Shown: positions 1 through 19,476, counted from the whole stretch's first letter. The stretch is 62,445 nt of DNA, filler included, from Bilabrum cf. latius (GCA_965178125.1; 4 parts of 4 records of this genome joined end to end with filler, not necessarily neighbours in it); one strand, 5' to 3'. Notes: a model not told the origin generated them from the sequence alone. Program-made: numbers and translations.

Positions 1-885
1 CCACGCGGCTCCGACTGTCCCTTCGCTCATGACCCCAGCCAGCGTGGGTCGGGCAAGGGCAGCGGGAAGGGGAAGGGCAAACGAGACCGAAGTTCGAGCC
101 GGCCGAGCTCTCCGTCCCCTTCTCCCTCGGGCGACAAGAAGAAGGTGAAGTGTCCGTTCTTCGCCCGTGGCAAGTGCGTCAAAGGAAAGGACTGCGACAT
201 GACCCACGCCAAACCATGCCACGCCTTCCAAAAGGGCGAGTACACAAAAGGGGACGATTGCCAGTTTGCACACGTCCATGTCGCACGTGAACAGAGCGGG
301 GGGCGACCCCCGCGGGGAGGGTCACGCGGGCGCAGCCCGCCGAGACGGCCCAAGGCAAAGAGCGCCGGCGGTCCGGCTGCCATCGCCGTTGTGTGCCATG
401 ACTCACCTCGCTCACGTGTACGCTTCGACGATTCCCCCTCGGTGAGGAAGTTTAGCGTGGAGAACATGTCAACGAATACAGCCAAGCGTCAGAAGATGTG
501 GTCTGCTCGTGCATCTAAGCGGAGCACCAGTCCTCGCCGCACCAGTGATGCCGTCGCGGACAAGGCCCATCTTAAGGCAGTGCGTTGGTCCAAGGATCTT
601 GGTCTGAGCGCGGGGGGCGACCCCCGCTCGGACAACTCGGTTGCGAGGGCGGAGGGCGACCTCTGCATGCGCAGCGCGAGGAAATCCGCCGACGCACCGG
701 CGCGCGTCGACATTGATGCCAGGCCCACTCGACGATGGATCATCGACACAGGCTCTTGCATTGATATTGTGGATCAGAGAACGTTGACTCCGTACGAAAA
801 GACCCGGACTGAGAAGGTCGACGAGCCCATCGAGCTCGCGACGGCAAACGGTGTCACGCACGCGACGCAGCTGTTGAGCACGCGT
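1..885 (+). CDS. Partial LTR-retrotransposon polyprotein (Gag C-terminus with CCCH zinc fingers, then aspartic protease), truncated by an LTR insertion at 886
   Basis: Frame 1 is open from base 1 (PRGSDCPFAH...). CCCH-type fingers CPFFARGKCVKGKDCDMTH and CHAFQKGEYTKGDDCQFAH (degenerate). Protease motif WIIDTGSCIDIV followed by IELATANG. Confidence 0.8.
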
Positions 886-1568
886 TGTGTTCCTCGTGCG
901 CCCAAAGCGTCGCACCCAAAGCGTGCGCCATGCGCAGTCGCGTCAGTCGCGTCAAAGCGACAAAGAGCGAAACCGTGTGACGTACAATCTGCTGTTAGAG
1001 TCGTTGCGTCTCGTCGGACCCGCAGCACCTTGTGATGCACAGATGTTCAGTCCTTTTTGTCACACGCGCTCCGAACTTCGAGCAGTTCGTCGCCGCTCCG
1101 TGAGCACTTGCATGTCTGCATGTCATATCAATTCGAAGCCGTTGGGCTGAAGCGAGGCCGCAGTCTCGCTCTCAGGGCTTAGCGCTCAGGCTCAGAGTCG
1201 AGGGCAGACCTTGTCAGGATCGGCGGTGGATAGGCGGAGACGGCTGGAAGATCAGCCGACCGCGAAGGCACAAGGTTGCGACCGTGTGCCCCGCTTCTGC
1301 GTTAGCACTGATTCCCTGACACTGCGAAGCCCGCGCCCCCTCGCGTGCACAAAGAGCCCGTTCGCGTACGCTCGGCCATGGCGTCTTCGCAGAGTGATCA
1401 TGACACGGGTCAGCATGTTGATGGAGATGGTTCGAGCGGTGCGACATCGAAGGACGAAGAGATAGAAGTGATGGGAGACGAAAGTAGCGCTACTCAGGTG
1501 GACCCTACCATCTTGCCTCCGCAACCCGATGTAGACACGATCCCCACTTTTCGTATTGCCGGAGCACA
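886..1568 (+). repeat. 5' LTR
   Basis: Near-identical to 12801-13488. TG...CA ends with an 8-bp imperfect inverted repeat. Boundaries are uncertain by a few bases. Confidence 0.85.
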
Positions 1569-4500
1569 AACTGGTGGACACACTGGGGACGGTGGAGGCC
1601 AGCTCCGGCTCACCGACGGCCCACTAAACGCCGCGGCTTCACGGTCGTCAAATCTCACCCTTGCGCAGGGTCGCGGCTCGCCGCAGGCGCTCCACAACGG
1701 CCAAGCGACGCGGCAGCACGAGTTCCAAGACGCGTGTGCCGACGTCACCACGGAACTTGGAAGCGCGGTTTCGTTGGAGGTCGCCAGCCTCCAGCGCGGC
1801 GAGGGCCAAGCAGCCTCGGAGGTCGAGAACTTCCGTGCTGTCGAGAGCGCGGCTGTCCGTGCTCTCTCTCACGCGCCGTTTCCGGGTCGCCAGCATGCGG
1901 CAGTTGAGCGCTCCCACGACGAGTTAGCCCTCAGTCCCAACGGGACTCGTTCGAGACGCGCGTTTGTCAGTACAAGCCCGACGACGACGAATACACCGAC
2001 GCAGCCGTCGACACGACCCACGCTGATCCGACTTGCCGTCGGCGGGACGACTCCTTGGAGCCGCCCCCCTCGGCATCGCCCGACAAGCGGGGGCGCGGCG
2101 AGCGGAAAGCGTCCGTCCGCGGGACCTGAGATCCCGAACTCCATGACGCACTCCGGCGCTGACGGGCCCAGACCCGGACTCCGCGCCGCGATGGTGACAC
2201 CCCGTTCCGTTGTCTGTCAGTTGGTCGGAGACCTCGACAGGGAAACGTTCGACGCATTCAGCACGACTGACTTCGGCGGCAGGACCGCCGATGGCAAGGC
2301 GTTCAAAGCGCCCGACCATCCTGAACGGGAACGACGTAGGCATCTCCCCGAAGCGCGGCCGAAACATGCCGCTCGTCTTGACGACATTTCGGAGGTGAAC
2401 CACGCCATCCGCGAATGTGGGCGTCTGCAACCTGACCCCAATGCAACGGCCGATCTGGTCGAGACGTGTTTGGACGTCCGTGTGCAGGTGCATGCCCCGA
2501 CGCGTACTCATCATTCTTCGTCGGGCTCGGACCCGATGTGGGCACCGCGGGAAACTCAGGACTTCAAGGCGAAAACCGCCGAGAAGCAGCTCGCGATGTT
2601 TTTGGATGACCCACCGGACTATCCGTGGTTCTTTGACGACCCGGCCAAGTCTGGACATACCGCTGGAAGATGGGTGCGACAGCGGCCCCGGCCACGACGC
2701 AGGCTTGTACTTGCGCAGGTCGATGGTACCGACGCCGACGCCGCGTTGACGCCGGCTTGCCCATTCCTGCAGGGTTCCCTCGACATTCCGACAATACCCA
2801 CCAGTGGAGCGGCGGACGCCCGTCCTCTCACAGCCGACGGTTGCCAGACCGGCACCGCGAACTCGCGACGGCAACGGACCAGCGCAGCTTTGGGAGGCTG
2901 GACCTCCCGAGCGCGCGAGATGCCCTGCGGAGCAATGGCGAACGCCTCTAGTGCCTGCGAACGTGTGGGCCGCACGCTCCTCGGGGGCGCCACGTCGCCT
3001 ATTGTTGCTTTCCAGGATGTCGCGGCAGACCGCGCCCACGACGAGGGTCAGAAGGCCACGTCCTTCCGAAGCGTGCCTCGTGAGATCCATGCATCACAGC
3101 TGAAGCCGCATGCTTCGAATGAGGCTTGCTCGCAGACGCTCCGCCGAAGGGAACAGGCGCTAGTCGAGGTGTCAGGTTCAGAAAGATGCAGAGACGCACA
3201 TGCCGACGCCCAGCCGGTCAAGGCACGAGATCGCCTCGCATCCGAAACCGCTTCGTACCGACACGCACATGACGAGGCGACCGCACACCATGACGTAGCG
3301 ACCTTGTTACCGCCATCATGTAGAACAGTACCGCCGTCAGCGCTGCCGCACGGGACAGCGCTCGTGCTCGCCTTGAACGGTCCGACGGCCCTGCACTTCG
3401 TACCGCCACGCGCTTCGAGCAGCACCGCACCCGCGGGAGCGGGCGCTCCAGATGGCGCCAGGGGTAGGCTTTCGACCTGCCCGCTCGATTGCCCGGTGAG
3501 CAACCTTTCGATTGACTGCCGTCCGGTACATGGCAGCATGCCACTTCCCTGTGACGGCTCTGCGACAGCGCGTCTCGACTCCAAACGCTTCCGAGCCGTC
3601 CTGGCGCCAACGTCGTCGGTTGCAACGACAACGTGCGACCATGGCGAGTCTTCAGAGGCCGTCGTGTCGACACATAGACACGACGATCGGTTGCCGGCCG
3701 AAACGTGCACCGAAAGAGCCACGAAGGAGGACAACGACGTCGACGGCCACACTGGGACTTGCGACGCCAACGAGACCGAAAACAACCCCGAGGCCGCCAG
3801 GAGGGTCGCGGAGAGAGTCGCCACACGGGCCCGCGCTGTCGAGGCATTCAGCGCCGCCCCCGGCTTGGGAGCCGAGGGTCGCTACGGAGGTCTTGTCGAT
3901 GGCGCCCGCTCCGACGCCGCCGCCGACGCCGACGATGGTGACCCGACGATGGTGACACAACGGTTGGGTACGGCGGGTCCGTGTCCTCATGCTGGCCGAG
4001 AGCGCTTGAAGAACGAGCCGGGTAGGCGTATCCTGCCCGCGCAGCCAGCTCCGGGATGGGCGAAGGAATCGGGCAAGCGCATACCGCAAGTGCGACCGAT
4101 TCCTCCGCCGTGTTGTCTCGACGCGCCAAATACCGGTCCGACTTCGTTGTTGACCCAGACGCGAAATGGTAGCGCCCGCGACCTTGTAGGCAGGAGACCC
4201 GCGCCCGAGCGTGACCACGTGCTTCTCTCAAGGAGCGGGCTTGCCGTACGACCGATGCCGCATCACTTCCGTCCACTCCCCGTCACAAAAAGCAAGGTCA
4301 TCGCACGTAGCCGACCTCCCGGCCACTCCGTGCGAAGCTCCACGGACAACGTTTCGGATGCCGTGGGTGGCCGAAAGACGAAGCGGCAGACCCAACTCGC
4401 GGATATGCCTTCGACCTTCACGTCCATCGCAATTGCGCTTCTCGCATTGCTCGTCAGCCTGCTTGTGTTCAGGTCCACGGTCGTTCTCCCGGCTCGTTCG

Positions 4501-7500
4501 CGCGGGGGATGCCACGGCGCAAATTCCACCTGTGTCGTTCGGATTTCGTTGGAAACGTCCGAGGACCCGCGTGCTTTCGACCAGCGCCTCGCATGGGGCG
4601 CCCTCAAGCAGATTCGCACGGCAGCTACGTTGCCTTACGCTTCCCTCGATGAAGGGGCGAGCCCGTTCGTCCCGGCACGCACACGTGCCGAAATCGAGGT
4701 CGCCGACGCCGGCCACTCTTTTGACCGTCCGCCCGCGGACGACGACGGAGACGAACCTCAAGTCTCCGCGGGGGATATTTGCACGGCTATCCTCGCGGCG
4801 TTCGACGTTCCGCCGCCTCTAGCCGCTGCCGAGTTCGTTGCTGTAAATGACGTGGTGCGGGTGCCACCGCCAACCCTCATGGCAGTTGGCATCACGCGTC
4901 CACCTTTCGCGGTTTCGAGCGCCACGCGGCGCTCAGGAAGCACGCCAAAAGCCGCGACGTTCGAATCGTGCATGTTCGTGCACTCCGCCGCAGGATTTGC
5001 CGCAGCGGATGACGACGCATGCGTATGTAGTTACGTCAGCCGGCCCGGCTCGATGCCCGGCCACTCGGACCTTCTCTTGCACGCCGACGTGCCGAAGGAG
5101 GTCGAGGCCCCGGATGCCGCTCGCGAGGCTCCGACGGAGGCGTCCGCTCGTGGACACATGAGTTACTCCCTTGGCCCACGCGGGGGGTGCTCAACGATAA
5201 CCCTGCTCGCGTCGACGTGGTACCATTCCCGGGACGACCAGCGCGTACCGAGCAGGGGAGCCCTGCCCGCGTCGACGCTGTACCCACTGCGGGCAGACCA
5301 GCGCGTACCGCGCAGTGGCAAAAGGGTCCAGCCAGCGGTACGGCCAGCCGCCGCTAGGGCCGCCGCGAGCCCGTTCGCGGAGAAGGGGGCGAGCTCGTTC
5401 GTCCCGGCGCCCGTGCGCGTCGAACCATCGGGGGCGAGCTCGTTCGTCCCGGCGCCCTTGCGCGTCGAACCACCGGGGGCGAGCTCGTTCGTCCCGGCGC
5501 CCGTGCGCGTCGAACCACCGGGGGCGAGCTCGTTCGTCCCGGCGCCCGTGCGCGTCGAACCATCGGGGGCGAGCTCGTTCGTCGCGGCGCCCTTGCGCGT
5601 CGAACCACCGGGGGCGAGCTCGTTCGTCCCGGCGCCCGTGCGCGTCGAAACATCGGGGGCGAGCTCGTTCGTCCCGGCACGCGCAAGTGCCGAAGCCGAA
5701 GACGCGCGAGTCCACGTGGGGGACGACCTTATGCGCCTGCCAGAAGAGCGCATGATCCTTCCCGTTCGTCTCTCTCATCTCCACGATGGTCACAGCAATA
5801 ACTTCGTAGTGCAGCGCCCCGCCGTGGCGCTAGGCAGGGACGGACAGACGCGACAGTGGTCCCGTTGCAGCCGGCATGATGTCGCAGCTGGCTCCCTCGA
5901 GACCGCCGTAGGCCACGAACGCGTGCGCCGCCAGGCTTGGAGGCGCACGGAACGAGCCGTAGAGACCGGCGACTGCGGAGGCTTCGTAGTTCAGCGTCCT
6001 GGCGAGGGTCAATTCCTCGGCCGCGGCCGTTACCGCTTTCACGGGGATCCCGAATCCGACCACGTCTTTCGCATCCACCTGCGCAGGCTTGATCTGCGGG
6101 GACATGGAACCGTGTATTGGGCATCGTCCACCGACACGTGGGTCGGAACCCCGGGAGCGAGCTCGTTCGTCCCGGTGCGCGCACGAGCCGAACCGCCCCG
6201 CTCGAGACCGCTCCGTTTCCGTTCGGCCGACGACCTCTCGAACTTCGAGCACGGCGCGGAATACCAGCTCACTCCGGTCATCGTCTACCCCACCGCGTTG
6301 GATGGAACATGGCCGCGCCGACCGGTGGCCCAGTTCCTTTCTTTCGTCCACGCGGCCGCGGAGTTTGCAGCAGCGGACGACGAGGAACGTGAACGTCCGC
6401 TCGTGGACGACGCAGTGGAGCCGCGCGCGCTCGCTGAAGGCGCGCCCGCGGCCGTGCCTGCCGAGGCCGACGTCCCGCTGCCGCCTCCCGCCGTTGCGGA
6501 GGCCGCGGCCGTAGCCGACGACGGTGACGAGGGCATGCGCCTGCCCGTTGAGCGCACTGTCCTTCCCGTTAGACCTTCGCATGTCCGCGACGATCATGGA
6601 GAGAACTTTGTAGTCCGGCACGGACGACGCTTGTTAACGCCCCTCCGTTTTGGATCTCTAGCCGAATCCGGCCCGGAGCGACGTGCCGGCGACCAGCCGG
6701 TGCGGGGCGTCGTCGAAGCCACTCTTTCGGACGGGACGCGCCCGCGCCGTCCGGCAGTTCGATCTCTCCCACGTGTGCATTGTAGCGACAGCGGACCGTG
6801 TCAGCGGGCCGCTCCGGCTTTGAAGCCAGAGGAGGATCTCGACAGTCCGCTCGTGGACGAGGCCGCCGTAAGTCTCAGGAGAGACTGTCCGCGCGAAGAC
6901 GAAGAGGACGACGATGGCGACAGCACGCCGGGCTCGGACCCGCGCGACGAAGACGACGAGGACGAGGAGGGTGACTACGGCGGTGACGACGGGCCGTTGC
7001 TCTCGGAGGAGCAGGACGAGAACCGGGGAATGGCGACGAAGGAGGAGCCTAAGGCAGACGCGAAAGGGCAGCTGCAGGAGGAAGAGCTACTGCTCGCAGC
7101 CCGCGCGCACACAACGCCTGCGCTGCTCACCCCGAAGTATGAACACCACGATCCGTTGTCAGTAGGCCCCGTGCTACTTCGGTCGTTAGCTCTTGATCCG
7201 TCGGTTGCTTTGCCCGCTACTCACCAGCAGTGGCGGTCGCCAGCACTTCGCTCCGTCGCTGCATTTGCTTTTCGCGGACGCCGGCCGCCGACGCCGAGAG
7301 CCGCAACATGCGAGCAGGATCCCACCATCGGTTGTAGCACTCTTCGTCGCGCTCCGACACGCGGGCTGGGTCCCACGGATGGTTGTAGCACCGTCCGGCG
7401 CATACCGGCTGGTCTCAGGTCGGCTCCGTCTACACCGTTTCCGGATTGCTACTCGATCCCGCTTTCGTCAGGCACTGCCCCACAGGCTTGGGGGGCGACC

Positions 7501-10500
7501 CCTTGCCACGCGGCCGACGGGACCGAGCCGTGCACAGTGGCCGGCGCTTCACGTCGCCCGATCCGTGCGGGAAGCGCGACTAGCGTCGTCGGTACGGCGG
7601 CGTACTCCAAAGTTGTCTTGGAGGACGCGTGTCCCATCGGAGCCCGACGCGACACCGCAAACCATGTAGAAGTCGTCGACCGTCCGTCAGTCTTGCCCAA
7701 CGGTAGGGCCCGCCTTGACGTTTTCATGATAGGTACCATGCGGATTCGTCTGTCCGAAAAGCCCGACAGATCACCACAGATGACGAACACTCATCGCGCG
7801 CTTCTTATACTTTGTCCGCCCGTGGGCACGTCGGCCCGCGCCGACAGTTCCAACAGTCCGCCCGTGGACGCATTGGCCTTTGCCGACCGTTCCAACAGTC
7901 CGCCCGTGGACGCATTGGCCTGCGCCGACAGTTCCAACAGTCCGCCCGTGGACGCATTGGCCTTTGCCGACCGTTCCAACAGTCCGCCCGTGGACGCATT
8001 GGCCTGCGCCGACCGTTCCAACAGGCCGCCCGTGGACGCATTGGCTTGTGCCGACCGCTTCAACAGTCCGCCCGTGGGCGCATCGGCCCGAGCTTACAAC
8101 TTCGACAGTTCGCTCGTCGATGTGTCGATTTTCGCCGACTACACCGCCAGGCCGCCCGTGGACATTTCGGGTTGCGCCGGCGAGCCAGCCCGTCGGCCCA
8201 TGGACGATCCGAGGGACCCCGACAAGGTTCCAAGCGCAGACAATCTGCTGCGTCTGCATGTGGGAAGGCTCGACCATCCCGCGACGGACGTCCTCCCGGT
8301 AGCGTTCGCTAGCCAGGATGAACCTCGACCGCTGCCGGAGTTCGCAGACGTAGCGCGTGAGGCGGTGAATCTCGATGAAGTCTTTGCGGTCACGAAACCG
8401 ACAGGTCCGCCCATCGACGATTTCCCCGATCTCCTGGGAGATGCGCTCGAGGAAGTTTCGACAGACCGGGCTGAGTCCCAACTGCTCGCCGATCTGGTCG
8501 TGCGCCCCGCCGCCGTCGACGACGTCTCACGTGCGGACGGGACGCCAGGGTCGTTAGCGCATTCGGTCACCACGACTTCGGAGCGCCCAGCGGGAGACGA
8601 CGCGTCGGAGCCGGCGGTTGCTTCCAGCATCGCGGTTCCGCTACACTCATTTACGGCCCGCAGGCTACTTCCGATAGAGTATGCGCCCCTCAGAGTTCGC
8701 GTGGGGCTGGAGGCCGGACCTTCAGCTACAACGGCCGCCGATACGGCCGACGAGGAATGCGACGAGCACGTGGACGCCCAGGTTCCGCTTGAATTGTCCA
8801 CGTATGTAGATCTCGCGCCGCACCTTCGCCAAGGCGCGGGGTGGAGCCGACATCGACTGACGCTGAATCCATTGAGCACATTACTCACACCCTCACGCGG
8901 GCGCGCGACACTGGATACACGCAAACAGGATGTGTCGTCGGGTGCGCCTGTGCACCTTGCGCTCGTGGCCAGGGCTTTTCCTCCCCGCCTCGAGCGTGGC
9001 GTTTCCGTATTGTCATGTTTCCTTGCTGGATTCGGACGCTTCCAGGGCTCCACGACGGTGCACGTTGCTCGTCCTCCGCCGCCTCTTTGCCCATCGACAG
9101 CAACGCTCGACGCAGCGCCGTTGTGCTACATCGTGCGCACAGCGTGCGGTAGCGATTGTTCGGGTGGTGTGCAGATGCCGACCACAGACACACGTGACGA
9201 ACCAGACGACTCTCCGGTGGAGGCGTTCGCCCCACCGCCAGGCGTGGCCTTCTACGTAGCTGCCGTCGTCTGGCCACGCAACAAGCTTCTCCAAAGTTCC
9301 ATGGGGGATGCTCACAATCCTCCCGCTGCACGGCACGAGGCTATACCTCCCGCCGGTGCTGCTGTAGCCGCCCCGATCGGGACAGCCGGGGTGTTCGACG
9401 ACGCCCGAGCTTTGGGAGATGAAGCCGGGCGCCCGCTGCGCGCGACACACATCCATACTCCCAGTGGGAAGGACTCCGCCGCTAAGCGCAGCAGCGATGA
9501 CGGGCAACGCGGTCCCCCGCCGCCGCCAGCCGACGACGACGACCACGACGACCACTACGGCCACGACGACCATGACAACGACGACGACCACGACGGCCAT
9601 GACAGCCACGACGACCATGACAATCACGACGACCACGACGACCACGACGACCACAACGACCATGACGACCGCGACGATCGTGCGAGAAAGACCGACGGCC
9701 CTCCGGTCGACTCCACCGCATCACCGAGGACCGTCGCCGCAGACCGTCCCTTCGAGGACTGCGCTTGCGATCCGCCGGAGGTTCCTCGCGAAACAGTTCG
9801 GGATCGTTCCGCAAGGGACGATGTCCTCGAGCTGCCCGTGACGCTTGGCGTTGTAGTCTTGCCACATCCGTCCGAGCACGATCCCGTACATCCCATCAGG
9901 GATAGCCGCGCCGTCGACGCCGTGGCGCCGAGGGTTGGACCCGCGGTTGCCGCACCGGCAGTCGCCGCGATAGGCGGCAAACCGGAAAACTTCACGTATG
10001 ACCCGCTCGCGGGCCCAGGCACGACCATCCTCGAACGTCTATTTGAGGACGCCTTGCGTAGGCTGCCAGATGCCGTTTGCGTCGCCGCCTTCCTCCGTCC
10101 AGTTGGACGCGCCTGCGTCGCGTTCGGCAGCTTGGTCCCACACACCGTTAGACGGCATGGTCCCAGCCGGAGTGCACCGCACCGCGCAGCCCCGGATGTT
10201 GGCCACCCGGCCTCCGGTGCAATAGCAGGAGCCACCGGACGCAGGCATTTCCTCCGCTTTGCATTTTACCACGTCGGTCGTATCTCGCATCGCCAAGTGG
10301 ACTTGGGCTCTGCGGTCCCACGTTCCGTATTCGATTCAATCGCACACAGCACCGTGCCCGGTCGCGACAAGGATCCGGACGCCCACGTCTTCCGAGCTCC
10401 CCTGCGCAGGCTGGACTTGCGCAGTAATGGCCAGCACAACGCCGGGTACCGGGGAGCAGTTCACCTAGTACGGACCAATTCGACATGCTTCTGTCTGGAC

Positions 10501-12195
10501 GCCCACTCATGGCGGCGCCGCGCCGATCGAGTCGCGCCGCGACGAGGCCGAGGGCAGGACCCTCCGGATTGCAGGCCCGACGCAAGACATAGGAGCCCCG
10601 TTGGCTTGATACGGGACATCCATGCCGATGACGACCTCTCGCCCGTGGATGCCATCACACTATCAGGACGTTGGGAAATGTTGACGAGGCATCCGCCAAA
10701 CGTTCGGACAGAAACGGTCGCCGCCTGTAGTTTCGCGTCGAAATCCGGTCCAGATGGCTCCGTGGATCTCATAGCAATGGCCCACACTCGGTTGTACGAG
10801 CGCGCCTCCCTGAGCCACGCTACCAGAACGCGCAGACCGCACGTCATTGGGACGACACGCGTCGAAGCCAATCACACGGATCACGCTCGGACACGGCACA
10901 TGAAGATCCACTTCGCGACGGACGGCGCCGTGGCACCGTACACCAGCAGCGCCGGCACGCCAGACGGCATGAAACCTGAAAGGGTCGGGACTCAGACTTC
11001 GACGTCAGATCTTTGGAGTTCAGGCGAAGCGGGCCAGACCCGCTTAGCTTCGGAGCACCGCGCTTACGAAGGATGCGACAACTCGCAGGAGGCCAGCCGT
11101 TCCGCTCATGACTTCAACGCTCCTCTCCTCTGCCGGTCGTGTGTCGCCGCACGCCCCCACGATTCTACCGACGAGGGTGTACTCGCCTCCGCACCGGTGG
11201 GCGCCTCCGCCGATGTGTTTGCGAGGGCGTTCCCGGATCCCATGGCGAAGCAGATGACCGACTCGAACGCCGTTGCACCCGACAAAATTGACCCGGAGAC
11301 CGACGTCGCCAGCTCTTGGACGACACGCGCTTCCGGTTCGGCGCCGACCAGGCCGAAATGTGCGCCATCGCGTTGCAGGCGACGGAATCAGGCAGGCGCA
11401 TACCGCAAGTGCGACCGATTCCTTCGCAGCGGAAGCAGCGCTTTGCTTCCGCGTGCGCACGTGTCATGGAAGGAGACACAGGCCCACGTTTGCGGTAAGG
11501 CCTCCGTCTCCGACCTCAACAACGCCGGCATCACCGAAAGTATCACGAAATCCTGCGTTTGTCGTCACAGCGTATGCATGGTGTGTAGTTGCTTCAACGA
11601 AAATGCCCTATTTCGTTGTGTTCCGCGCAGCGCCCAGTCGAAGCACGCTTGTAGCATGCCCACGCCGGGGCAGCATCCGTGCACGTGTAGTATGAGCGAC
11701 CGCGGCAAGACCGCGCTCAACGATTCGACGATCTTAGTCAGCATCACTGTGCACAGTTCTTGTACGCTTCGCGATGCGTTCATCTACTCGCTCGATTCCG
11801 TCTGGACCTTGACTGTAGACATTGATACAGCCATGGCACGCCGCATTGACGATGTCTGCGCCAAGGGCGCCACGAGCTCATTGCTCGGGCGTCATGCCAA
11901 AGATCGCGGTAGACCGCAAACGAACTCCGAACCAGTTCCGATCGGTGAGGAAAGGCTCAGGACCTTATCCCGTGTCGTTCCCCACGACGCGCTACCAGCT
12001 TGCCTAGCCAACGGCTGCGGACGCCCCTGGAGCGAATCCAAGGCCGCCGGTTTAGGCCACATTGCGGGCACGTCCTCGCAGTTTGCCCGTCACCTTCGAT
12101 CTCCGCGGCGCACTTGGCGGCGATTCGCGCCCGGTCCGGGCGACTTCGAGCGGTCACCGGCGCCGAGCACTTTGACGACAGCCAAAGCTTCGTGA
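1378..12195 (+). CDS. Giant (~3,605 aa) low-complexity hypothetical protein inside the LTR element, starting within the 5' LTR
   Basis: 10.8 kb without a stop, while other frames give at most ~390 aa. Internal tandem repeats are all multiples of 3. No RT, RNase H or integrase motifs recognised. Confidence 0.6.
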   Translation: MASSQSDHDTGQHVDGDGSSGATSKDEEIEVMGDESSATQVDPTILPPQPDVDTIPTFRIAGAQTGGHTGDGGGQLRLTDGPLNAAASRSSNLTLAQGRGSPQALHNGQATRQHEFQDACADVTTELGSAVSLEVASLQRGEGQAASEVENFRAVESAAVRALSHAPFPGRQHAAVERSHDELALSPNGTRSRRAFVSTSPTTTNTPTQPSTRPTLIRLAVGGTTPWSRPPRHRPTSGGAASGKRPSAGPEIPNSMTHSGADGPRPGLRAAMVTPRSVVCQLVGDLDRETFDAFSTTDFGGRTADGKAFKAPDHPERERRRHLPEARPKHAARLDDISEVNHAIRECGRLQPDPNATADLVETCLDVRVQVHAPTRTHHSSSGSDPMWAPRETQDFKAKTAEKQLAMFLDDPPDYPWFFDDPAKSGHTAGRWVRQRPRPRRRLVLAQVDGTDADAALTPACPFLQGSLDIPTIPTSGAADARPLTADGCQTGTANSRRQRTSAALGGWTSRAREMPCGAMANASSACERVGRTLLGGATSPIVAFQDVAADRAHDEGQKATSFRSVPREIHASQLKPHASNEACSQTLRRREQALVEVSGSERCRDAHADAQPVKARDRLASETASYRHAHDEATAHHDVATLLPPSCRTVPPSALPHGTALVLALNGPTALHFVPPRASSSTAPAGAGAPDGARGRLSTCPLDCPVSNLSIDCRPVHGSMPLPCDGSATARLDSKRFRAVLAPTSSVATTTCDHGESSEAVVSTHRHDDRLPAETCTERATKEDNDVDGHTGTCDANETENNPEAARRVAERVATRARAVEAFSAAPGLGAEGRYGGLVDGARSDAAADADDGDPTMVTQRLGTAGPCPHAGRERLKNEPGRRILPAQPAPGWAKESGKRIPQVRPIPPPCCLDAPNTGPTSLLTQTRNGSARDLVGRRPAPERDHVLLSRSGLAVRPMPHHFRPLPVTKSKVIARSRPPGHSVRSSTDNVSDAVGGRKTKRQTQLADMPSTFTSIAIALLALLVSLLVFRSTVVLPARSRGGCHGANSTCVVRISLETSEDPRAFDQRLAWGALKQIRTAATLPYASLDEGASPFVPARTRAEIEVADAGHSFDRPPADDDGDEPQVSAGDICTAILAAFDVPPPLAAAEFVAVNDVVRVPPPTLMAVGITRPPFAVSSATRRSGSTPKAATFESCMFVHSAAGFAAADDDACVCSYVSRPGSMPGHSDLLLHADVPKEVEAPDAAREAPTEASARGHMSYSLGPRGGCSTITLLASTWYHSRDDQRVPSRGALPASTLYPLRADQRVPRSGKRVQPAVRPAAARAAASPFAEKGASSFVPAPVRVEPSGASSFVPAPLRVEPPGASSFVPAPVRVEPPGASSFVPAPVRVEPSGASSFVAAPLRVEPPGASSFVPAPVRVETSGASSFVPARASAEAEDARVHVGDDLMRLPEERMILPVRLSHLHDGHSNNFVVQRPAVALGRDGQTRQWSRCSRHDVAAGSLETAVGHERVRRQAWRRTERAVETGDCGGFVVQRPGEGQFLGRGRYRFHGDPESDHVFRIHLRRLDLRGHGTVYWASSTDTWVGTPGASSFVPVRARAEPPRSRPLRFRSADDLSNFEHGAEYQLTPVIVYPTALDGTWPRRPVAQFLSFVHAAAEFAAADDEERERPLVDDAVEPRALAEGAPAAVPAEADVPLPPPAVAEAAAVADDGDEGMRLPVERTVLPVRPSHVRDDHGENFVVRHGRRLLTPLRFGSLAESGPERRAGDQPVRGVVEATLSDGTRPRRPAVRSLPRVHCSDSGPCQRAAPALKPEEDLDSPLVDEAAVSLRRDCPREDEEDDDGDSTPGSDPRDEDDEDEEGDYGGDDGPLLSEEQDENRGMATKEEPKADAKGQLQEEELLLAARAHTTPALLTPKYEHHDPLSVGPVLLRSLALDPSVALPATHQQWRSPALRSVAAFAFRGRRPPTPRAATCEQDPTIGCSTLRRAPTRGLGPTDGCSTVRRIPAGLRSAPSTPFPDCYSIPLSSGTAPQAWGATPCHAADGTEPCTVAGASRRPIRAGSATSVVGTAAYSKVVLEDACPIGARRDTANHVEVVDRPSVLPNGRARLDVFMIGTMRIRLSEKPDRSPQMTNTHRALLILCPPVGTSARADSSNSPPVDALAFADRSNSPPVDALACADSSNSPPVDALAFADRSNSPPVDALACADRSNRPPVDALACADRFNSPPVGASARAYNFDSSLVDVSIFADYTARPPVDISGCAGEPARRPMDDPRDPDKVPSADNLLRLHVGRLDHPATDVLPVAFASQDEPRPLPEFADVAREAVNLDEVFAVTKPTGPPIDDFPDLLGDALEEVSTDRAESQLLADLVVRPAAVDDVSRADGTPGSLAHSVTTTSERPAGDDASEPAVASSIAVPLHSFTARRLLPIEYAPLRVRVGLEAGPSATTAADTADEECDEHVDAQVPLELSTYVDLAPHLRQGAGWSRHRLTLNPLSTLLTPSRGRATLDTRKQDVSSGAPVHLALVARAFPPRLERGVSVLSCFLAGFGRFQGSTTVHVARPPPPLCPSTATLDAAPLCYIVRTACGSDCSGGVQMPTTDTRDEPDDSPVEAFAPPPGVAFYVAAVVWPRNKLLQSSMGDAHNPPAARHEAIPPAGAAVAAPIGTAGVFDDARALGDEAGRPLRATHIHTPSGKDSAAKRSSDDGQRGPPPPPADDDDHDDHYGHDDHDNDDDHDGHDSHDDHDNHDDHDDHDDHNDHDDRDDRARKTDGPPVDSTASPRTVAADRPFEDCACDPPEVPRETVRDRSARDDVLELPVTLGVVVLPHPSEHDPVHPIRDSRAVDAVAPRVGPAVAAPAVAAIGGKPENFTYDPLAGPGTTILERLFEDALRRLPDAVCVAAFLRPVGRACVAFGSLVPHTVRRHGPSRSAPHRAAPDVGHPASGAIAGATGRRHFLRFAFYHVGRISHRQVDLGSAVPRSVFDSIAHSTVPGRDKDPDAHVFRAPLRRLDLRSNGQHNAGYRGAVHLVRTNSTCFCLDAHSWRRRADRVAPRRGRGQDPPDCRPDARHRSPVGLIRDIHADDDLSPVDAITLSGRWEMLTRHPPNVRTETVAACSFASKSGPDGSVDLIAMAHTRLYERASLSHATRTRRPHVIGTTRVEANHTDHARTRHMKIHFATDGAVAPYTSSAGTPDGMKPERVGTQTSTSDLWSSGEAGQTRLASEHRAYEGCDNSQEASRSAHDFNAPLLCRSCVAARPHDSTDEGVLASAPVGASADVFARAFPDPMAKQMTDSNAVAPDKIDPETDVASSWTTRASGSAPTRPKCAPSRCRRRNQAGAYRKCDRFLRSGSSALLPRAHVSWKETQAHVCGKASVSDLNNAGITESITKSCVCRHSVCMVCSCFNENALFRCVPRSAQSKHACSMPTPGQHPCTCSMSDRGKTALNDSTILVSITVHSSCTLRDAFIYSLDSVWTLTVDIDTAMARRIDDVCAKGATSSLLGRHAKDRGRPQTNSEPVPIGEERLRTLSRVVPHDALPACLANGCGRPWSESKAAGLGHIAGTSSQFARHLRSPRRTWRRFAPGPGDFERSPAPSTLTTAKAS
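1572..1589 (+). promoter_or_regulatory. Primer-binding site TGGTGGACACACTGGGGA (complement of a tRNA 3' end, possibly tRNA-Ala)
   Basis: Starts with TGG 3 nt after the LTR-terminal CA. Absent after the 3' LTR. Confidence 0.7.
5386..5678 (+). repeat. 45-bp coding minisatellite (GASSFVPAPVRVEPS/P), ~6.5 copies
   Basis: GGGGCGAGCTCGTTCGTCCCGGCGCCCGTGCGCGTCGAACCATCG repeated. Confidence 0.9.
7840..8090 (+). repeat. 42-bp coding minisatellite (ADS/RSNSPPVDALAF/C), ~6 copies
   Basis: GCCGACAGTTCCAACAGTCCGCCCGTGGACGCATTGGCCTTT repeated. Confidence 0.9.
9532..9678 (+). repeat. 9-bp GACGACCAC-type repeat encoding an Asp/His tract
   Basis: DDDDHDDHYGHDDHDNDDDHDGHDSHDDHDNHDDHDDHDDHNDHDD in the giant ORF. 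Confidence 0.85.
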
Positions 12196-12775
12196 TGCGC
12201 AGCGGGCAGCACGTTCCGACCCGCTTGCGAGTACTCCACGATTCGGCGTCGCGAACGTACGTGACTCGCGTAGCACTGCACCGCAGCTGTCCCCTTCCGA
12301 CGAGGGAAGCTTTGCAGTTGGGAAGACGACTTTTGCAGCGCGCTTGGAGAGGACCTTTCCTCGAGAACCGCACAGCCGACCCCATCGACAGACCGACCTG
12401 GAGAGCATCATTTTGAAAGAGCAGCTCGACCGCCTCGCAGGCCGCATCGGTCGCTTGCAGTTCCGCGGAAGAGACCCCATACCGCTTTTGATGAAGATCA
12501 GCCGCCACATCGTTGCGCTTTGTGACGCGTCGGCTTAGGACCAATGAAGGGTGAAGGCGACGAACAACGACGTGATGCTCGTTGACAGCGCCGAATATTG
12601 ATGCGTCGCACAGCGCCGTGCCGTTCACGGGCGCTCTGAGCAGCGACGCGATGAGCAATGACGTGACGTGCGATGACGCGACGGGTCCTCGACCCGCCGT
12701 ACTTCGACGACTGCGGCGTGATCCAGGCCGCGCCGCGCCCGCTTTGTTCGTATAGAGTGGCCCTCGCCCCGCGTC

Positions 12776-12797
12776 GAGGGGGCGACGGCCAGGGGGA
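12776..12797 (+). promoter_or_regulatory. Polypurine-tract-like sequence
   Basis: Purine-rich GAGGGGGCGACGGCCAGGGGGA just before the 3' LTR. Confidence 0.55.
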
Positions 12798-12800
12798 TGC

Positions 12801-13488
12801 TGTGTTCCTCGTGCGCCCAAAGCGTCGCACCCAAAGCGTGCGCCATGCGCAGTCGCGTCAGTCGCGTCAAAGCGACAAAGAGCGAAACCGTGTGACGTAC
12901 AATCTGCTGTTAGAGTCGTTGCGTCTCGTCGGACCCGCAGCACCTTGTGATGCACAGATGTTCAGTTCCTTTTTGTCACCACGCGCTCCGAACTTCGAGC
13001 AGTTCGTCGCCGCTCCGTGAGCACTTGCATGTCTGCATGTCATATCAATTCGAAGCCGTTGGGCTGAAGCGAGGCCGCAGTCTCGCTCTCAGGGCTCAGC
13101 GCTCAGGCTCAGAGTCGAGGGCAGACCTTGTCAGGATCGGTGGCGGATAGGCGAAGACGGCTGGAAGATCAGCCGACCGCGAAGGCACAAGGCTGCGACC
13201 GTGTGCCCCCGCTTCTGCGTTAGCACTGATTCCCTGACACTGCGAAGCCCGCGCCCCCTCGCGTGCACAAAGAGCCCGTTCGCGCACGCTCGGCCATGGC
13301 GTCTTCGCAGAGTGATCATGACACGGGTCAGCATGTTGATGGAGATGGTTCGAGTGGTGCGACATCGAAGGACGAAGAGATGGAAGTGATGGGAGACGAA
13401 AGTAAGCGCTACTCAGGTGGACCCTACCATCTTGCCTCCGCAAACCCGATGTAGACACGATCCCCACTTTTCGTATTGCCGGAGCACA
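12801..13488 (+). repeat. 3' LTR
   Basis: Copy of 886-1568 with a handful of substitutions and 1-bp indels. Confidence 0.85.
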
Positions 13489-13570
13489 AAAAATAGCACT
13501 CGCGCGATGTCCGCTCTCGCATGCATCATGCCGCAGGTACGGTAGTAGTAGCAAGAACACATGTATGACG

Positions 13571-13770
13571 ACACACACACACACAACCAAACACATGGAT
13601 GCGCGGCGCTTGTTTGCAGCAAGGTTGCAACGAGTCGCGCTGCGATCACACACACACACTCCACGCACGCACGCACCGCACCGCGCACAACACACACGCG
13701 CCGCACGCACGCACGCACGCACGCACGCGCGCACGCACGCACGCATGCACACACACACACACGCATGCAC
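13571..13770. repeat. (CA)n/(CACG)n microsatellite
   Basis: Direct reading. Confidence 0.9.
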
Positions 13771-13869
13771 GCGGCCCGACGCGACCGACATTGAAGACCC
13801 ATGGCGGGCGGGCGCGCCGGCAGGCTGCAACGGCGCGATCGGCGCGCCCAGAGCGGGGGCAAGCGGGCT

Positions 13870-14040
13870 TGGGCCCGGGCCCGGGCCCGGGCCCGGCCCG
13901 GGCCCGGGCCCGGGCCCGGGCCCGGGCCCGGGCCCGGGCCCGGGCCCGGGCCCGGCCCGGGGCCCGGGCTTGGGCCCGGGTTTGGGCCCGAACCCGGGCC
14001 CGGGCCCGGGCCCACGCTTGGGCCTTGGCCCGGGCCCCGG
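13870..14040. repeat. (CCCGGG)n simple repeat
   Basis: Direct reading. Confidence 0.9.
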
Positions 14041-14181
14041 CCAATTTGTCGTTGTCTCAAGCGGTCTTTCTCGAAATCTCTCTCTCTGGCCGGTTCTCTT
14101 GTCGGTGCGGGCATTCGTCGGTGGGGGTTCTTGTCGGTGCGGGCTATTGTCGGTGAGGAGCGTCGCATCCATTGCGCATTA

Positions 14182-14595
14182 CTCCAGGTTGGTGAATTCG
14201 GGGTAAGTCGCCCGTCCCGCCGGTCGGCCGGCCCAAAAGTTGGCCGAAGTTAGGCCGAACTTTGGCCGACTCGGGCCGATGTTTGGCCGGTTTGGGCCGA
14301 TTTTTTGGCCGATGCTCGCAAAATGCGGCGAAGATCTTCCAAATTGTCGCCCGAATCGGCCAAAATTTCGGCCAAACTCATTCCAAATCGGCCCCAGTCG
14401 CCCCACATCGGCCCAAATTTTGTGCAACTCGGCCAAAGTTCGGCCCAAATCGGCCAAAAATCGGCCAAATTTCGGCCCAGATCGCCCAAACCGGCCAACA
14501 TTCGGCTTAATTGGGCCCAAATTTGGCCAAATCTCGGGCCGGCCGGGCATGCGGAACGCCGACTTATCCCGGAACCCTTACGAGCCAACCTGGAG
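14182..14595. mobile_element. MITE family A, degenerate copy, filled with 10-11-bp GGCC-AAATT satellite
   Basis: TA|CTCCAGGTTGG...CCAACCTGGAG|TA termini. Homologous to 18905-19474. Confidence 0.7.
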
Positions 14596-14759
14596 TAAGC
14601 CGCCCCCAGGACGAGTCTTGTTGGGCGTCGCGAGCTTGAAGACTTTGAGGTGCACGGAACCTGGAGCAAGATGTGAAATACGGTGGGGGTCGGGGGGGGG
14701 TCCCCGGGATCGGGGGGCACCCGGGAGGCGGGGGGGGGGTTGGGCGGTTTTTGGGGGCA

Positions 14760-15044
14760 ACTTCGGCCGATTCTGGACGATTTCGGCCAATTCTGGGCGA
14801 TTTTGGCCGATTCTGGGGCGATGTTGGCCAATTCTGGGCGATTTTGGCCGATTCTGGGCGATTTCGGCCATATCTGGGCGATTTCGGCCAATTCAGGGCG
14901 ATTTGTGGCCGATTCTGGGCGATGTTGGCCGATTTTGGGCGATGTTGGCCGATTCTGGGCGATTTTGGGCCAATTCTGGGCGATTTGCGGCCTATTCTGG
15001 GCGATTTGGGCCAATTCTTGGCGATTTGGGCCAATTCTGGGCGA
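14760..15044. repeat. 10-11-bp periodic satellite (GGCCGATTCTGGGCGATTTT-like)
   Basis: Direct reading. A similar tract is at 18415-18585. Confidence 0.85.
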
Positions 15045-15046
15045 TA

Positions 15047-15410
15047 CGGTAGGTGGACGAAAAGGTGAAACCCACGGGTGATGCGAATGTCTTCACGGGA
15101 GTCAAGCGCGCAATGTCTCTGGTGTGCATACTTGAGAACCATGGATCTGGGTGGAAAACAGAAAATGGCCCTGAAATAGGTCGCCGTGGCTCGGATTTTG
15201 ATGTGGGTTTGTGCAACCTGCACTGTTTTTTGCGGAGAATCTCGCCACGGGGGTTTCGCCCCGATTCGGCGAAGCCAGACCCCCCCAAAATCCAAATCAC
15301 GTGTTTTTGCAAAACGGGGAGTTCCCCAAAAACCAACGGAATTCTCCAAACACCGGATATGATGAAAGCATCTAGTATCAACGGGTTTCACCTTTTCGTC
15401 CACCTACCCG
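15047..15410. mobile_element. MITE with 26-bp terminal inverted repeats
   Basis: GGTAGGTGGACGAAAAGGTGAAACCC at 15048 and its exact reverse complement at 15383-15408. TA on the left side. Confidence 0.75.
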
Positions 15411-15558
15411 CATCGAACATGGTTTTCCACGTGCTCTTTCACGGGAAGTGCAAGTTGAAACGTGACCCTTTGCAGTTTTCAGTGATGCCCTCAGACCCAG
15501 GCGCAGCCCAGCATTCCATTGGATTCCAGGAGGCCCTCCAATTCGGACAAGAATCATA

Positions 15559-15997
15559 AGGAGGTATTGGGGGTGGGTCATATTGGGGTGCACTGCGTGT
15601 AAGTTGCGGCTCGTGCTATTTGCCGAATGTTGCCGATTTATGCAGATTGTTGCTAACTTGTGCAGATTTTTTGCAAATTTGGGTAAACTGTTCGGGTTAA
15701 TTTTCCGGGGGTCGAACTTTTTGGGGCGGATTTTTTTCCAAATTCCCCCCGAAATTTCGAAAACTCGCCCCGGAGGCCGTTTTCGCCACCCCGGGAGTGT
15801 TTTTTTCGGATTCCTCGTGCTTTTCTCATTAATTTGGTCGGCTTTTCATCCATTTTCGCCCAATCTGGGCCCTGTTCGGCCTATTTCTTGTCTTTTTGGG
15901 GCATCGCTGTCCTATTTCCTAGACAAAAAGCACGAGATTCATGATTTGCAAAGCACGCACACTGCACCCTAATATGACTGAACACTAATACCTTCCG
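15559..15997. mobile_element. Degenerate MITE
   Basis: Left GGAGGTATT...GTCATATTGGGGTGCA matches the reverse complement of right TGCACCCTAATATGAC...AATACCTTCC. Confidence 0.5.
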
Positions 15998-16096
15998 ATG
16001 AAAGAACACGGTTTGGGGGCACCCATGGAGAACAGGCCAAAAGTGGTTCTAAAGGACCACCAGAGTTCTTAATGATAGGGCAGCTCGGGCACAATA

Positions 16097-16568
16097 CGGG
16101 CCCGGTTTCTTATGATAAAGACTTTTCTCTGGCGAGCCCCTGGCAATTTCTTATTCGGGGGCCCAGAATAGGAAATCTTTGGGCCGACCCAGGGGCCGGA
16201 TTTAAGAAGTTGCTCTTTTGACGGCCGCGTTGAACCCCGGAATTGACCACCCCCTCCGTCGCGGTTCCTATAGAATCTGGCCGATCAGACCCCTGGGCAG
16301 CCAGATGGCGCCGAGACCCCCAGAACCGGATTCCTTGCATCGCGGCATCACCAAAGATGGGACTTTCGTCGAAATCCGAGCCAGGAGGGCCGTGTTCAGA
16401 GCGATTTTCCCGAAAATCCATGGATTTTCGGAAAAATCGCTCTGAACACGGCCCTCTTGGCTCGGATTTCGACGAAAATCCCATCTTGGGCGCGAGGGTC
16501 GCTAAGAAATGGGACCGATCGAGGGTATGCTTTCTTAACGTATCATTTCTTGTATGAAACCGGCCCCG
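16097..16568. mobile_element. MITE family C copy 1, containing a ~137-bp palindrome
   Basis: TA|CGGGCCCGGTTTC...GAAACCGGCCCCG|TA. Subterminal regions are homologous to 16932-17619. Confidence 0.7.
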
Positions 16569-16931
16569 TAACCAGAGAGCGTTGCACCCATTGCGGGGAA
16601 CATTTTCCGCGATAGTTTCAAACCTTGCGTTTTCTTGGAAGAAACTCGTTTCCCTGAACATGGTCGAGCTCCAGAAAAAAAAAAAAGAAAAAAAAAGAAG
16701 AAAAAAAAAAGAAAAAAAAAAAGTACACCCACACGCACAAAAAGTGAGCTTGCAGAAGATGGTCGCGCCCAGCGAGTGCTTCCTTGATTCCTCGTGCTTT
16801 TCTTGATGACGTTGGCCGGATTCTCGTTCTGTTTGGTCAAGCCTGGGCCGGTTTCGGGCTTGTTTTGGATGATTTCGTAATTGTAAATTCCCTCTCATTG
16901 AGAGTTCCCTATCATTCCGGAATTTCAAGTA

Positions 16932-17619
16932 CGGGGTTGGTTTTCTATAAGATTTTTTTTTCCTGGCCAGCCCCTGGAAATTTCTTATTTAGGGGCCCAA
17001 AATAAGAAATTTTCGGGCCGTTCCAGGGGCCGAATTTAAGAAATTGCTGAACATATGTGGGATGGATGCAAAACCACCAGGGGGAAAAAAAACGAGGTTC
17101 TCTCGCAGGAGCCGCCCGCCCCAAAAAAAAACAAAAAAAAGAAGAAAACAACAGGGGGACAAAAAAAGAAAAAGAAAAAGAAAAAAGAAAAAAGAAAAAA
17201 GAAAAAAAGAAAAAAGAAAAAATAAAAAGAAAAAAGAAAAAAGAACAAAAAAAGAAGAAAAAAGAAAAAAGAAAAAAGAAAAAAGAAAAAAGAAAAAGAA
17301 AAAAGAAAAAAGAAAAAAGAAAAAAGAAAAAATAAAAAAGAAAAGAAGAAAAAAATAAAAAAGGAAAGGAAGGAAAAGAAAAAGAACAAGAGAAATAAAA
17401 AGAAAAAGAAAAAGAAAAAAAAAAGAAAAAAGAAGAAGAAGAAGGGAAACAAAAACGAAAAGAAAAAAGAAAGAAGAAGAAGAAGAAGAACAAAAAAAAG
17501 GAAAAAAAAGGAAACAACAAAAACATGGAAAAAACAGACGACCCAGGGTCGCTAAGAAATTTGGCCGATTCAGGGGTCTAATTTCTTAACGGGTAATTTC
17601 TTATCATAAACCGACCCCG
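16932..17619. mobile_element. MITE family C copy 2, filled with an A-rich polypurine tract (~17120-17520)
   Basis: TA|CGGGGTTGGTTT...AAACCGACCCCG|TA. Confidence 0.7.
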
Positions 17620-17744
17620 TAGGTCCGGCCGCCCAACTACCTGTGGAAGCGGGAGAAACTTGGCCAAACCCCGATTTGCGCCAGGGGGAGCCATGTTTTC
17701 GCCATCTTACGTTGGGGTGTGCAATCAAACTTCCGGCGCAATTC

Positions 17745-17820
17745 AACTTCCGGTGCAATTGAACTTCCCCGAGCCCGGGCCCGGGCCCGGGCCCGCGGAA
17801 GTTCAATTGCACCGAAAGTT
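17745..17820. repeat. 24-bp inverted repeat enclosing (CCCGGG)n
   Basis: AACTTCCGGTGCAATTGAACTTCC ... GGAAGTTCAATTGCACCGAAAGTT. Confidence 0.8.
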
Positions 17821-17944
17821 CACCAGATCCAGCGTTTGTTCGTGAAAGCACGGCCCGCATTCGGCCAAAGCAGCTCAACAACAGCGACTAAGATGGCTCA
17901 AACAGGTTCCCGGCCCAACTTGTGCACGAGCAGCGCAAAGCATC

Positions 17945-18300
17945 TCCCAACCCTCCCGGCAACCTTCCCGGCAACCATACCCCCCAACCCCCTCCCCTCG
18001 CTCTTGACAACCTTCCCAGCAACCCTCCCCAACTTTCTCCCAACCTCCCGGCCCGGGACTCCCGGCAACCCTCCCGGCAACCCTCCCGGCAAACCTCCCG
18101 GCAAACCTCCCCCAACCCTCTCCCAAACCCTCCGGCAACCCTCCCTGGCAACCCTCCCCCAACCCCCATCCAACCCTCTTGGCAACGCTGCCGGCAACCC
18201 TCCCCCAACCCTCTCCCAACCCTCCAGCAAACCTCCCCGCGGCCTCCGGCAGCCTCCCGGCAGCCCTCCCCGAACACTTTCCCAACCCCTCCTAGCAACC
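17945..18300. repeat. 12-bp CCCGGCAACCCT-like minisatellite (resumes ~18705-18775)
   Basis: Direct reading. Confidence 0.8.
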
Positions 18301-18314
18301 CTTGGGTACCGTCT

Positions 18315-19474: not shown

Positions 19475-19476
19475 TA

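Follow-up and report, generated by a model that had tools for sequence, protein, structure and literature searches.

A giant orphan open reading frame inside a candidate non-autonomous LTR retroelement of Bilabrum cf. latius

Introduction

Elements that are bounded by long terminal repeats (LTRs) and lack pol are, to our knowledge, usually either non-coding, as are large retrotransposon derivatives (LARDs) and TRIMs, or equipped with a recognizable gag. LARDs and TRIMs are mobilized in trans, and nothing between their LTRs codes for protein. Here we describe a unit at positions 886-13488 of a 62,445-nt stretch of DNA from Bilabrum cf. latius (GCA_965178125.1). This stretch, hereafter the window, consists of four joined parts, and all coordinates count from its first letter as 1. 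The unit resembles a LARD or a TRIM in being LTR-bounded and pol-less, but where those have a non-coding interior we found a 3,605-codon open reading frame (ORF) with coding periodicity that appears to be under selection. It has the look of a retrotransposon shell that either holds a fast-evolving gene for a probably largely unstructured protein or has turned into one. With moderate confidence, we read it as a non-autonomous LTR retroelement, or the direct derivative of one, in which a real giant orphan ORF is carried.

The arrangement of the unit has a counterpart in Ty1, where gag begins inside the 5´ LTR and the primer binding site (PBS) lies within the coding sequence, and which encodes Gag and Pol. 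An ORF start in the LTR and a PBS-like site in the ORF are shared with Ty1, a likeness of layout only. Non-autonomous LTR retrotransposons that keep an ORF occur in wheat, where excerpts of one report describe RLG_Quinta, with GAG as well as a domain whose function is not known, and RLG_Sabrina/WHAM (PMC11302176). According to the same excerpts, the GAG of Quinta is clear, and its partner Cereba has the same LTR termini and PBS. Like such Quinta-type elements, our unit has LTRs and an intact ORF with a coding part of unknown function, encodes no reverse transcriptase (RT) or integrase, and would rely on a partner; its PBS and polypurine tract (PPT) are only PBS-like and PPT-like. Unlike Quinta, it has no recognizable GAG, its interior is filled by an ORF of ~3,600 codons, and no partner was seen in the window.

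Two further groups offer partial parallels. As far as the consulted portions of the papers go, additional ORFs (aORFs) in LTR retrotransposons of plants and bdelloid rotifers (PMC7264820, PMC5408684) are, like the ORF described here, non-gag, non-pol coding sequence between LTRs, but they lie beside gag-pol in otherwise autonomous elements, whereas here the ORF is the sole one. TRIMs are named in an excerpt of a further paper (PMC6934838). Gene capture by LTR retrotransposons and the domestication of retroelement genes, again as represented in parts of the respective papers (PMC3726574, PMC10516033), likewise yield coding sequence that is framed by, or derived from, an LTR element. Captured fragments, however, are usually short and have recognizable host parents, and a parent gene is lacking for our ORF; domesticated gag genes retain homology to capsids and have lost their LTRs, whereas our unit has both LTRs and no capsid homology. 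A limited keyword search of the literature did not find a description of a comparable unit, which may still exist in print.

A giant open reading frame with a strong coding signal

The initial annotation had described one ORF of about 10.8 kb that opens inside the LTR and runs through the PBS, and this description holds. Frame 1 is stop-free from 1312 to 12195, with 0 stops in 3,627 codons where ~89 would be expected from base composition, and the other five frames of the same stretch contain 72, 90, 55, 49 and 68. The first ATG (1378) lies at LTR nt 493 in a GCC-ATG-G context, and the first 63 codons are encoded by the LTR; a GTG at 1345 is an alternative start that would give a protein of 3,616 aa. 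From either start the frame reads across the PBS-like site. GC content at codon positions 1, 2 and 3 of the ORF is 0.69, 0.57 and 0.68. The 3-base periodicity of the ORF and of other stretches is listed in Table 1; values of 13.4 and 10.2 times background are reached even where the ORF has no large tandem arrays, at 1569-4000 and 10000-12195. On these signals the ORF is real and selected to stay open.

If the unit works as a retroelement, transcription would start in the 5´ LTR, and the mRNA would carry the ATG at LTR nt 493, from which translation would pass the PBS-like site and continue to 12195. The RNA would end in the 3´ LTR, and the enzymes for reverse transcription and integration would be supplied in trans by an autonomous element.

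Terminal repeats and layout of the unit

A blastn comparison of the window with itself revealed a single pair of long direct repeats, 886-1570 and 12801-13490, with 98.1% identity over 690 columns. Their termini read TGTG and CACA, the latter ending at 1568 and 13488, which gives LTRs of 683 and 688 nt with the TG start and CA end by which LTR retrotransposons are defined; the closely similar LTRs noted at the outset are thus present. The first 8 nt of the LTR agree with the reverse complement of its last 8 nt at 7 of 8 positions (estimated chance ~6e-4). Inverted LTR termini are of the kind recognized by integrases. In a MAFFT alignment the two copies differ by 8 substitutions, which are transitions only, and by 5 one-base indels, each of them inside a short homopolymer and each leaving the 3´ copy the longer. 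Two of these five indels break the copy of the ORF start within the 3´ LTR, and the copy in the 5´ LTR is intact.

A PBS and a PPT had also been proposed. A TGG-led site and purine runs do stand at the expected places, and we call them PBS-like and PPT-like and go no further. The 17-mer at the TGG (1572) is unique in the window, and the complement of 1572-1589 would presumably fit canonical tRNA positions 59-76 (C61, C72, CCA), by what we take to be the standard numbering. Ahead of the 3´ LTR are two G-rich purine runs of 7 nt each (12776-12782 and 12791-12797), which are 9 nt apart, the nearer of them 3 nt before the LTR. Rfam at gathering thresholds returned 0 families, and a scan for bacterial promoters and terminators, not relevant here, was empty.

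Table 1. Positions of features in and around the unit, and 3-base periodicity of selected stretches
Feature	Position	Strand	Remarks
5´ LTR	886-1568	+	683 nt; TG start, CA end; first ATG of the ORF at LTR nt 493
Giant ORF	1378-12195	+	3,605 codons from the first ATG; stop codon 12193-12195
PBS-like site	1572-1589	+	led by TGG, 3 nt past the 5´ LTR, within the ORF
Sole segment with an outside homolog	2350-2604	+	aa 336-420 counted from the GTG; matches P0002
50-nt hairpin repeat, copy 1	4059-4108	+	z -2.9, -32.7 kcal/mol
Membrane-span-like hydrophobic segment	4405-4488	+	single; Kyte-Doolittle window mean 1.94
Diverged module-duplication zone	4654-6864	+	same frame throughout, 38-73% aa identity; holds the 60-nt and 45-nt arrays
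60-nt tandem array	5201-5315	+	within the module-duplication zone
45-nt tandem array	5385-5678	+	within the module-duplication zone
42-nt (14-aa) tandem array	7772-8233	+	no indels
9-nt array	9531-9677	+	~16 units; encodes an Asp/His-rich run
50-nt hairpin repeat, copy 2	11378-11427	+	z -1.6
Spacer, stop codon to 3´ LTR	12196-12800	+	non-coding, 3-base periodicity 1.0; PPT-like purine runs at its end
3´ LTR	12801-13488	+	688 nt; 8 transitions and 5 one-base insertions relative to the 5´ copy
Left-flank open frame, outside the unit	1-885	+	three CCCH zinc fingers; Asp-Thr-Gly motif at nt 745-753; cut exactly at the LTR start
3-base periodicity, ORF	1569-4000		13.4 times background
3-base periodicity, ORF	4000-7000		21.0 times background
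3-base periodicity, ORF	7000-10000		29.0 times background
3-base periodicity, ORF	10000-12195		10.2 times background
3-base periodicity, spacer	12196-12800		1.0 times background
3-base periodicity, three of four tested stretches downstream of the unit			0.4-1.7 times background
3-base periodicity, downstream stretch	20000-24000		4.6 times background
3-base periodicity, coding-like left flank			5.5 times background

The predicted product and its relatives

The product is rich in Ala (13%), Arg (10%), Pro (10%), Ser (8.5%) and Asp (8%) and poor in Lys (1.7%), a composition near that of translated GC-rich DNA apart from the excess of Asp. It is probably largely disordered. Models that AlphaFold2 made from the single sequence, one for aa 251-510 and one for aa 2830-3130, were not confident, with predicted local distance difference test (pLDDT) values of 40.8 and 30.8, which are too low to base a fold comparison on.

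The enzymes that an autonomous element encodes, namely protease, RT, RNase H and integrase, were not found. With Pfam, the full-length protein had no domain at E ≤ 0.01, its 12 overlapping 450-aa windows no RT, RNase H, integrase, protease or gag family at E ≤ 5, and the ORFs of at least 120 aa on both strands across the unit (part of 150 ORFs scanned) no pol domain. The low-E matches in these windows to PhiKZ_gp35, DUF7285, CdAMP_rec, Nop14 and CDC45 fall far short of the cut-offs and were set aside as noise, and matches to Collagen, PARP and CFAP143 were rejected as off-frame or satellite translations. A motif search for YxDD, CCHC, D[ST]G[AS], HHCC, CCCH, P-loop and DEAD found only two F-x-D-D strings. 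The statement that pol motifs are lacking was therefore sustained by Pfam on the whole protein, on its windows and on ORFs of both strands and by the motif search alike. The check that had been proposed for a diverged RT or integrase, made with Pfam windows, motifs, PDB sequences and a language-model atlas, also came back negative. Since broken gypsy relics elsewhere in the window can still be detected by Pfam, a pol region of ordinary divergence would have been seen.

Relatives of any kind are scarce. Two word-indexed searches of 5.8 billion proteins, covering candidates near in length and shorter ones, gave none among the matches listed, and these candidate lists were possibly swamped by low-complexity words. 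In the language-model atlas neither half of the protein had a usable match, and the recognition scores of 1173 and 999 lie in the range of shuffled sequences (2300 is reached by 91 of 100 proteins of known families). Against the PDB, phmmer with the whole protein and a profile search with the segment aa 336-420 produced nothing meaningful.

An exhaustive phmmer search of aa 1-1200 against 1.84 billion representatives gave one match (E 1.5e-4), P0002, an unnamed protein of 86 aa on a 559-nt environmental contig. It is 41% identical to aa 336-420 over 85 aa (pairwise E 1e-15). Neither this segment nor P0002 matches a Pfam family or a solved structure, and searching with a profile built from the pair turned up no relatives among longer proteins. 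The match suggests that aa 336-420, at least, form a conserved protein element. As a whole, the predicted product is an orphan protein, partly built from internal duplications.

Repeats inside the open reading frame

The tandem arrays of the ORF have periods of 60, 45, 42/126 and 9/45, and all periods are divisible by 3 except that of a trivial 14-nt unit present twice. Outside the ORF, arrays have periods of 4, 6, 11, 16, 17, 20, 21, 25 and others. Indels make up 0% in the 45, 42/126 and 9/45 arrays, which confirms the frame-preserving repeats of 45, 42 and 9 bp that had been noted, and 3% in the 60-nt array. Older duplications have also stayed in register: the duplicated modules at aa 1104-1840 are 38-73% identical and share one common frame. 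Both of the dispersed peptide duplications reported at the outset were recovered, one between aa 1433-1490 and 1694-1758 (E 3.5e-11) and one between aa 1568-1588 and 3010-3029 (E 3e-4).

A different kind of repeat is the 50-nt hairpin, whose two copies are 92% identical and share a 27-nt identical core that occurs nowhere else in the window. The copies lie in different codon phases, which indicates that this repeat is conserved as DNA or RNA and not as peptide.

Versions in other sequencing runs

Seven of the nine public runs listed contain part of the stretch; four studies are represented, and none of the runs is on record as RNA, which has no bearing on expression. We compared contigs of four runs, one per study, over 1-15000 of the window; the best holder is possibly the window's own source. 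The counts on versions rest on the listed part of this comparison, namely 32 of the 7,159 pieces, 40 of the 1,145 letter differences and 12 of the 48 indel rows. Contig depth was not taken as copy number, and alleles, orthologs and paralogous copies are indistinguishable in these contigs.

Twenty-seven of the 32 listed pieces lie wholly in the ORF, and the frame is kept in 26 of them: 24 are gap-free, two have a 12-nt gap, and one has 13 gap letters. On the refuting case named at the outset, sister copies full of stops, these pieces bear only indirectly. The 12 listed pieces that are 4-14% diverged cover 5,938 nt with 635 substitutions, and gaps occur in only three of them. The LTR pair, by contrast, has 5 indels per 8 substitutions. 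Listed indels in the ORF are -3, -12, a -2 seen in just one contig, and a +1 and a -1 separated by 6 nt; those in the 3´ spacer are +1 and -1.

The similarity to the window is a mosaic, in which for example 9853-11747 is nearly identical in three runs and other stretches are 8-14% different. One run, X1, has two versions at 5132-5327, which may be alleles, paralogs or sequences from different cells. A joint in the same run that connects 681 with 13934 was considered as an empty site and rejected, since one side is only 20 nt long and lands in satellite. At 9161-9595, just before the Asp/His repeat, the window is 8-9% off the contigs of all four runs, which share alternative letters at nine of ten listed positions (run X7 keeps the window letter at 9497); in the stretches adjoining this segment, three runs hardly differ from the window. 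Gene conversion could account for the difference, as could a separate haplotype in the assembly of the window.

What selection appears to act on

Changes are spread over all three codon positions. The listed ORF variants (n=22) fall on positions 1, 2 and 3 as 9, 6 and 7, with 6 synonymous and 16 non-synonymous changes. Differences among the units of the 42-nt array are distributed 40:35:40 and those of the 9-nt array 13:5:10, and four DNA-guided comparisons of dispersed repeats gave 6:5:3, 9:6:8, 7:5:6 and 3:5:4, the variant and repeat samples all being small and non-random. Internal duplicates yielded a non-synonymous divergence (dN) of 0.47 and a synonymous divergence (dS) of 1.36 over 311 codons, which we dismissed as evidence for residue constraint because blastp-guided alignments bias dN downwards and the DNA-guided counts have no third-position excess. 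That stops and frameshifts have been purged in the absence of such an excess implies that the frame is selected and that the residues, as it seems, are barely constrained. Selection thus seems to act mainly on the open frame and its length, and not on exact residues.

Weighing the explanations

Our preferred reading, a non-autonomous LTR retroelement or its direct derivative, has to be weighed with a number of observations that count against it. The initial annotation had suggested a selected, giant, disordered protein on a non-autonomous retroelement. Selection for an open frame, the lack of pol, an unrecognized product of biased composition and LTR-type ends withstood scrutiny; the mobility of the unit is putative. 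A target-site duplication (4-6 nt), which the initial annotation had not claimed, is absent, the bases that adjoin 886 and 13488 being unrelated, and the window contains one copy of the unit, with no further match to the LTR, the PBS or the LTR ends anywhere else in it. Nor does the window contain an autonomous partner with the same LTR ends or PBS, and a tblastx comparison between the unit and the remainder of the window reached scores of only ~30 bits. Sister loci were not found in a metagenome protein scan, a metagenome exact scan and two viral scans, the exact scan of the metagenome collection having been made with the LTR/PBS junction. The window offers no tRNA to compare with the PBS-like site, as the tRNA calls that ARAGORN made in it (n=3) all lie within GGGCCC satellite; the PPT-like tract is short and interrupted by C. 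A recognizable GAG or capsid was found neither by Pfam at E ≤ 5, nor in aa 336-420 or P0002, nor by the profile search of the PDB. Lastly, some versions in other runs are possibly broken: one diverged contig has 13 gap letters and a net length change of -11, and a version in run X1 has a +1 at 5222 with no compensating -1 listed.

The most serious alternative, which we consider possible but doubtful, is a host gene at a fixed locus that was exapted from, or captured by, an LTR element, such that an LTR relic supplies its promoter, its start codon and its first 63 codons. The missing target-site duplication and the single copy in the window would fit this explanation, as would the versions in four runs of four studies (one possibly the source), with their mosaic of near-identical and 8-14% diverged stretches and their few gaps. 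A further point is the distribution of indels. Five indels accumulated in 683 nt of LTR; if both LTRs were identical at one insertion, this density predicts ~39 indels when projected on the 10.6-kb interior, or ~15 with the lower 95% bound of the rate (P(0) ~2e-7; P<3e-7), and the window copy has no frame-breaking indel there. The ORF is no poorer than the LTR in homopolymer targets. The two LTR indels that break the ORF start do so only in the unused 3´ LTR copy. The lack of interior indels despite decay of the LTRs would, at face value, point to selection at the locus and on the host; a merely parasitic copy should lack such protection. This dating fails, however, if the LTRs come from two recombined copies, which the missing target-site duplication allows and in which case their differences need not date one insertion, or if the homopolymer differences, lying in a repeat, are assembly or polishing errors. 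In addition, the residues look unconstrained, which is unusual though not unheard of for a selected host protein, and the contig data do not separate alleles or orthologs from paralogous copies.

An unlikely explanation dispenses with the retroelement altogether. A large and fast-evolving host gene could have had its 5´ region, that is its promoter and first 63 codons, partially tandem-duplicated downstream, with LTR features arising by coincidence. The missing target-site duplication, the lack of gag and pol, the single copy in the window, a PBS and PPT that are only PBS-like and PPT-like, and the presence of the gene's own start codon in the repeat would all agree with such a duplication. 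It is difficult to reconcile, though, with sharp boundaries marked by TG...CA and by inverted ends that agree at 7 of 8 positions (~6e-4 by chance), with a TGG 3 nt past the left repeat and with a purine run 3 nt before the right one. A second event that removed the remainder of the second copy exactly at that point would also be needed, and the left repeat cleanly cuts another retroelement-like frame, with CCCH fingers and a D-T-G motif.

Quite unlikely, in our estimate, is that the frame is kept open for translation itself and not for the protein, in which case the ORF would in essence be spacer that is translated and in which protein sequence can arise de novo. Were this true, the 12-kb RNA of the retroelement might depend on translation that runs without a break from the ATG in the LTR to the 3´ end, and translation could avert nonsense-mediated decay or load the nascent product in cis.

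It is very improbable that the frame is open by accident, through youth or base composition, and has no coding function. An amino-acid make-up near that of 65% GC DNA, the lack of a predicted fold (pLDDT 40.8 and 30.8), atlas scores in the shuffled range and the absent third-position excess are what an accidental frame would show. Such a frame would, however, have to escape stops entirely where 89 are expected and 49-90 occur in the other frames, show strong codon periodicity only inside the ORF, retain internal duplications of 38-73% identity in frame, have versions that are 4-14% diverged and nearly gap-free, and possess a homolog outside. Finally, it is barely credible that the ORF encodes a gag-pol polyprotein of the ordinary type in extremely diverged form, for which only its position speaks (a single long ORF between LTRs with a start in the LTR), given the lack of any signal by Pfam at E ≤ 5, by motifs, in the PDB, in the atlas and in the exhaustive phmmer search of aa 1-1200, and the Pfam-detectable state of the broken gypsy relics in the same window.

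If the retroelement reading is correct, a 10.8-kb interior that consists of one selected orphan ORF from its start in the LTR would be an extreme retroelement cargo, and could illustrate ways in which a giant fast-evolving gene is carried by an LTR, originates in one or takes its promoter from one. Alternatively, the locus could illustrate selection for an open frame nearly without residue constraint. It is a concrete and checkable locus for studies of de novo and orphan gene evolution.

Flanks and the rest of the window

The window has a GC content of 65%, many satellites and very few Pfam domains in its 62 kb. Together with the CCCH zinc fingers, a gypsy-type integrase zinc-binding domain and a pogo-type DDE domain, these traits indicate a GC-rich eukaryote. 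Directly left of the unit, the three CCCH zinc fingers of the flanking open frame are matched by Pfam zf_CCCH_4 (1e-7) and by PDB 2cqe (5.9e-5), and its Asp-Thr-Gly motif is matched weakly by gag-asp_proteas (E 0.17). This frame could belong to a second retroelement, as its nucleocapsid-protease part, with the LTR unit inserted in that element. Its continuation was not found beyond 13488, which suggests a later rearrangement, and blastp of the left-flank ORF against the N-terminus of the giant ORF and against P0002 gave nothing. The left flank is covered by contigs of all four runs, and in two of them 316-605 (290 nt) is replaced by 15 other letters.

Broken gypsy-type pol relics at 26424-29842 (+) are spread over three frames, with matches to RT_RNaseH (E 1.4e-3), Integrase_H2C2 (E 1.9e-8) and rve (E 8e-3), and document that retroelements do occur in this genome. 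They end at an N run (29864), and GC skew is strongly positive over 22-30 kb. Further on, a tandem duplication of ~15 kb (29964-44166 and 44879-59245), with 97.7-100% identity and bounded by N runs, may be a genuine segmental duplication or may have arisen as an artifact of assembly. It includes an ORF at 43857-45908 (-) with a weak pogo-type DDE_1 match (E 3.7e-5) and internal repeats that are 72-95% alike.

Directly past the 3´ LTR lies a satellite field (13490-20404). It is made up of (CACG)n at 13662-13772, of (GGGCCC)n at 13871-14042, 19524-19717 and 20165-20404, of GGCC-A/T-rich units of 10, 20 and 21 nt at 14240-15045 and 19055-19412, and of an A-rich (AAAAAG)n tract of 400 nt at 17126-17536. 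The GGGCCC arrays are miscalled as tRNA-Pro by ARAGORN.

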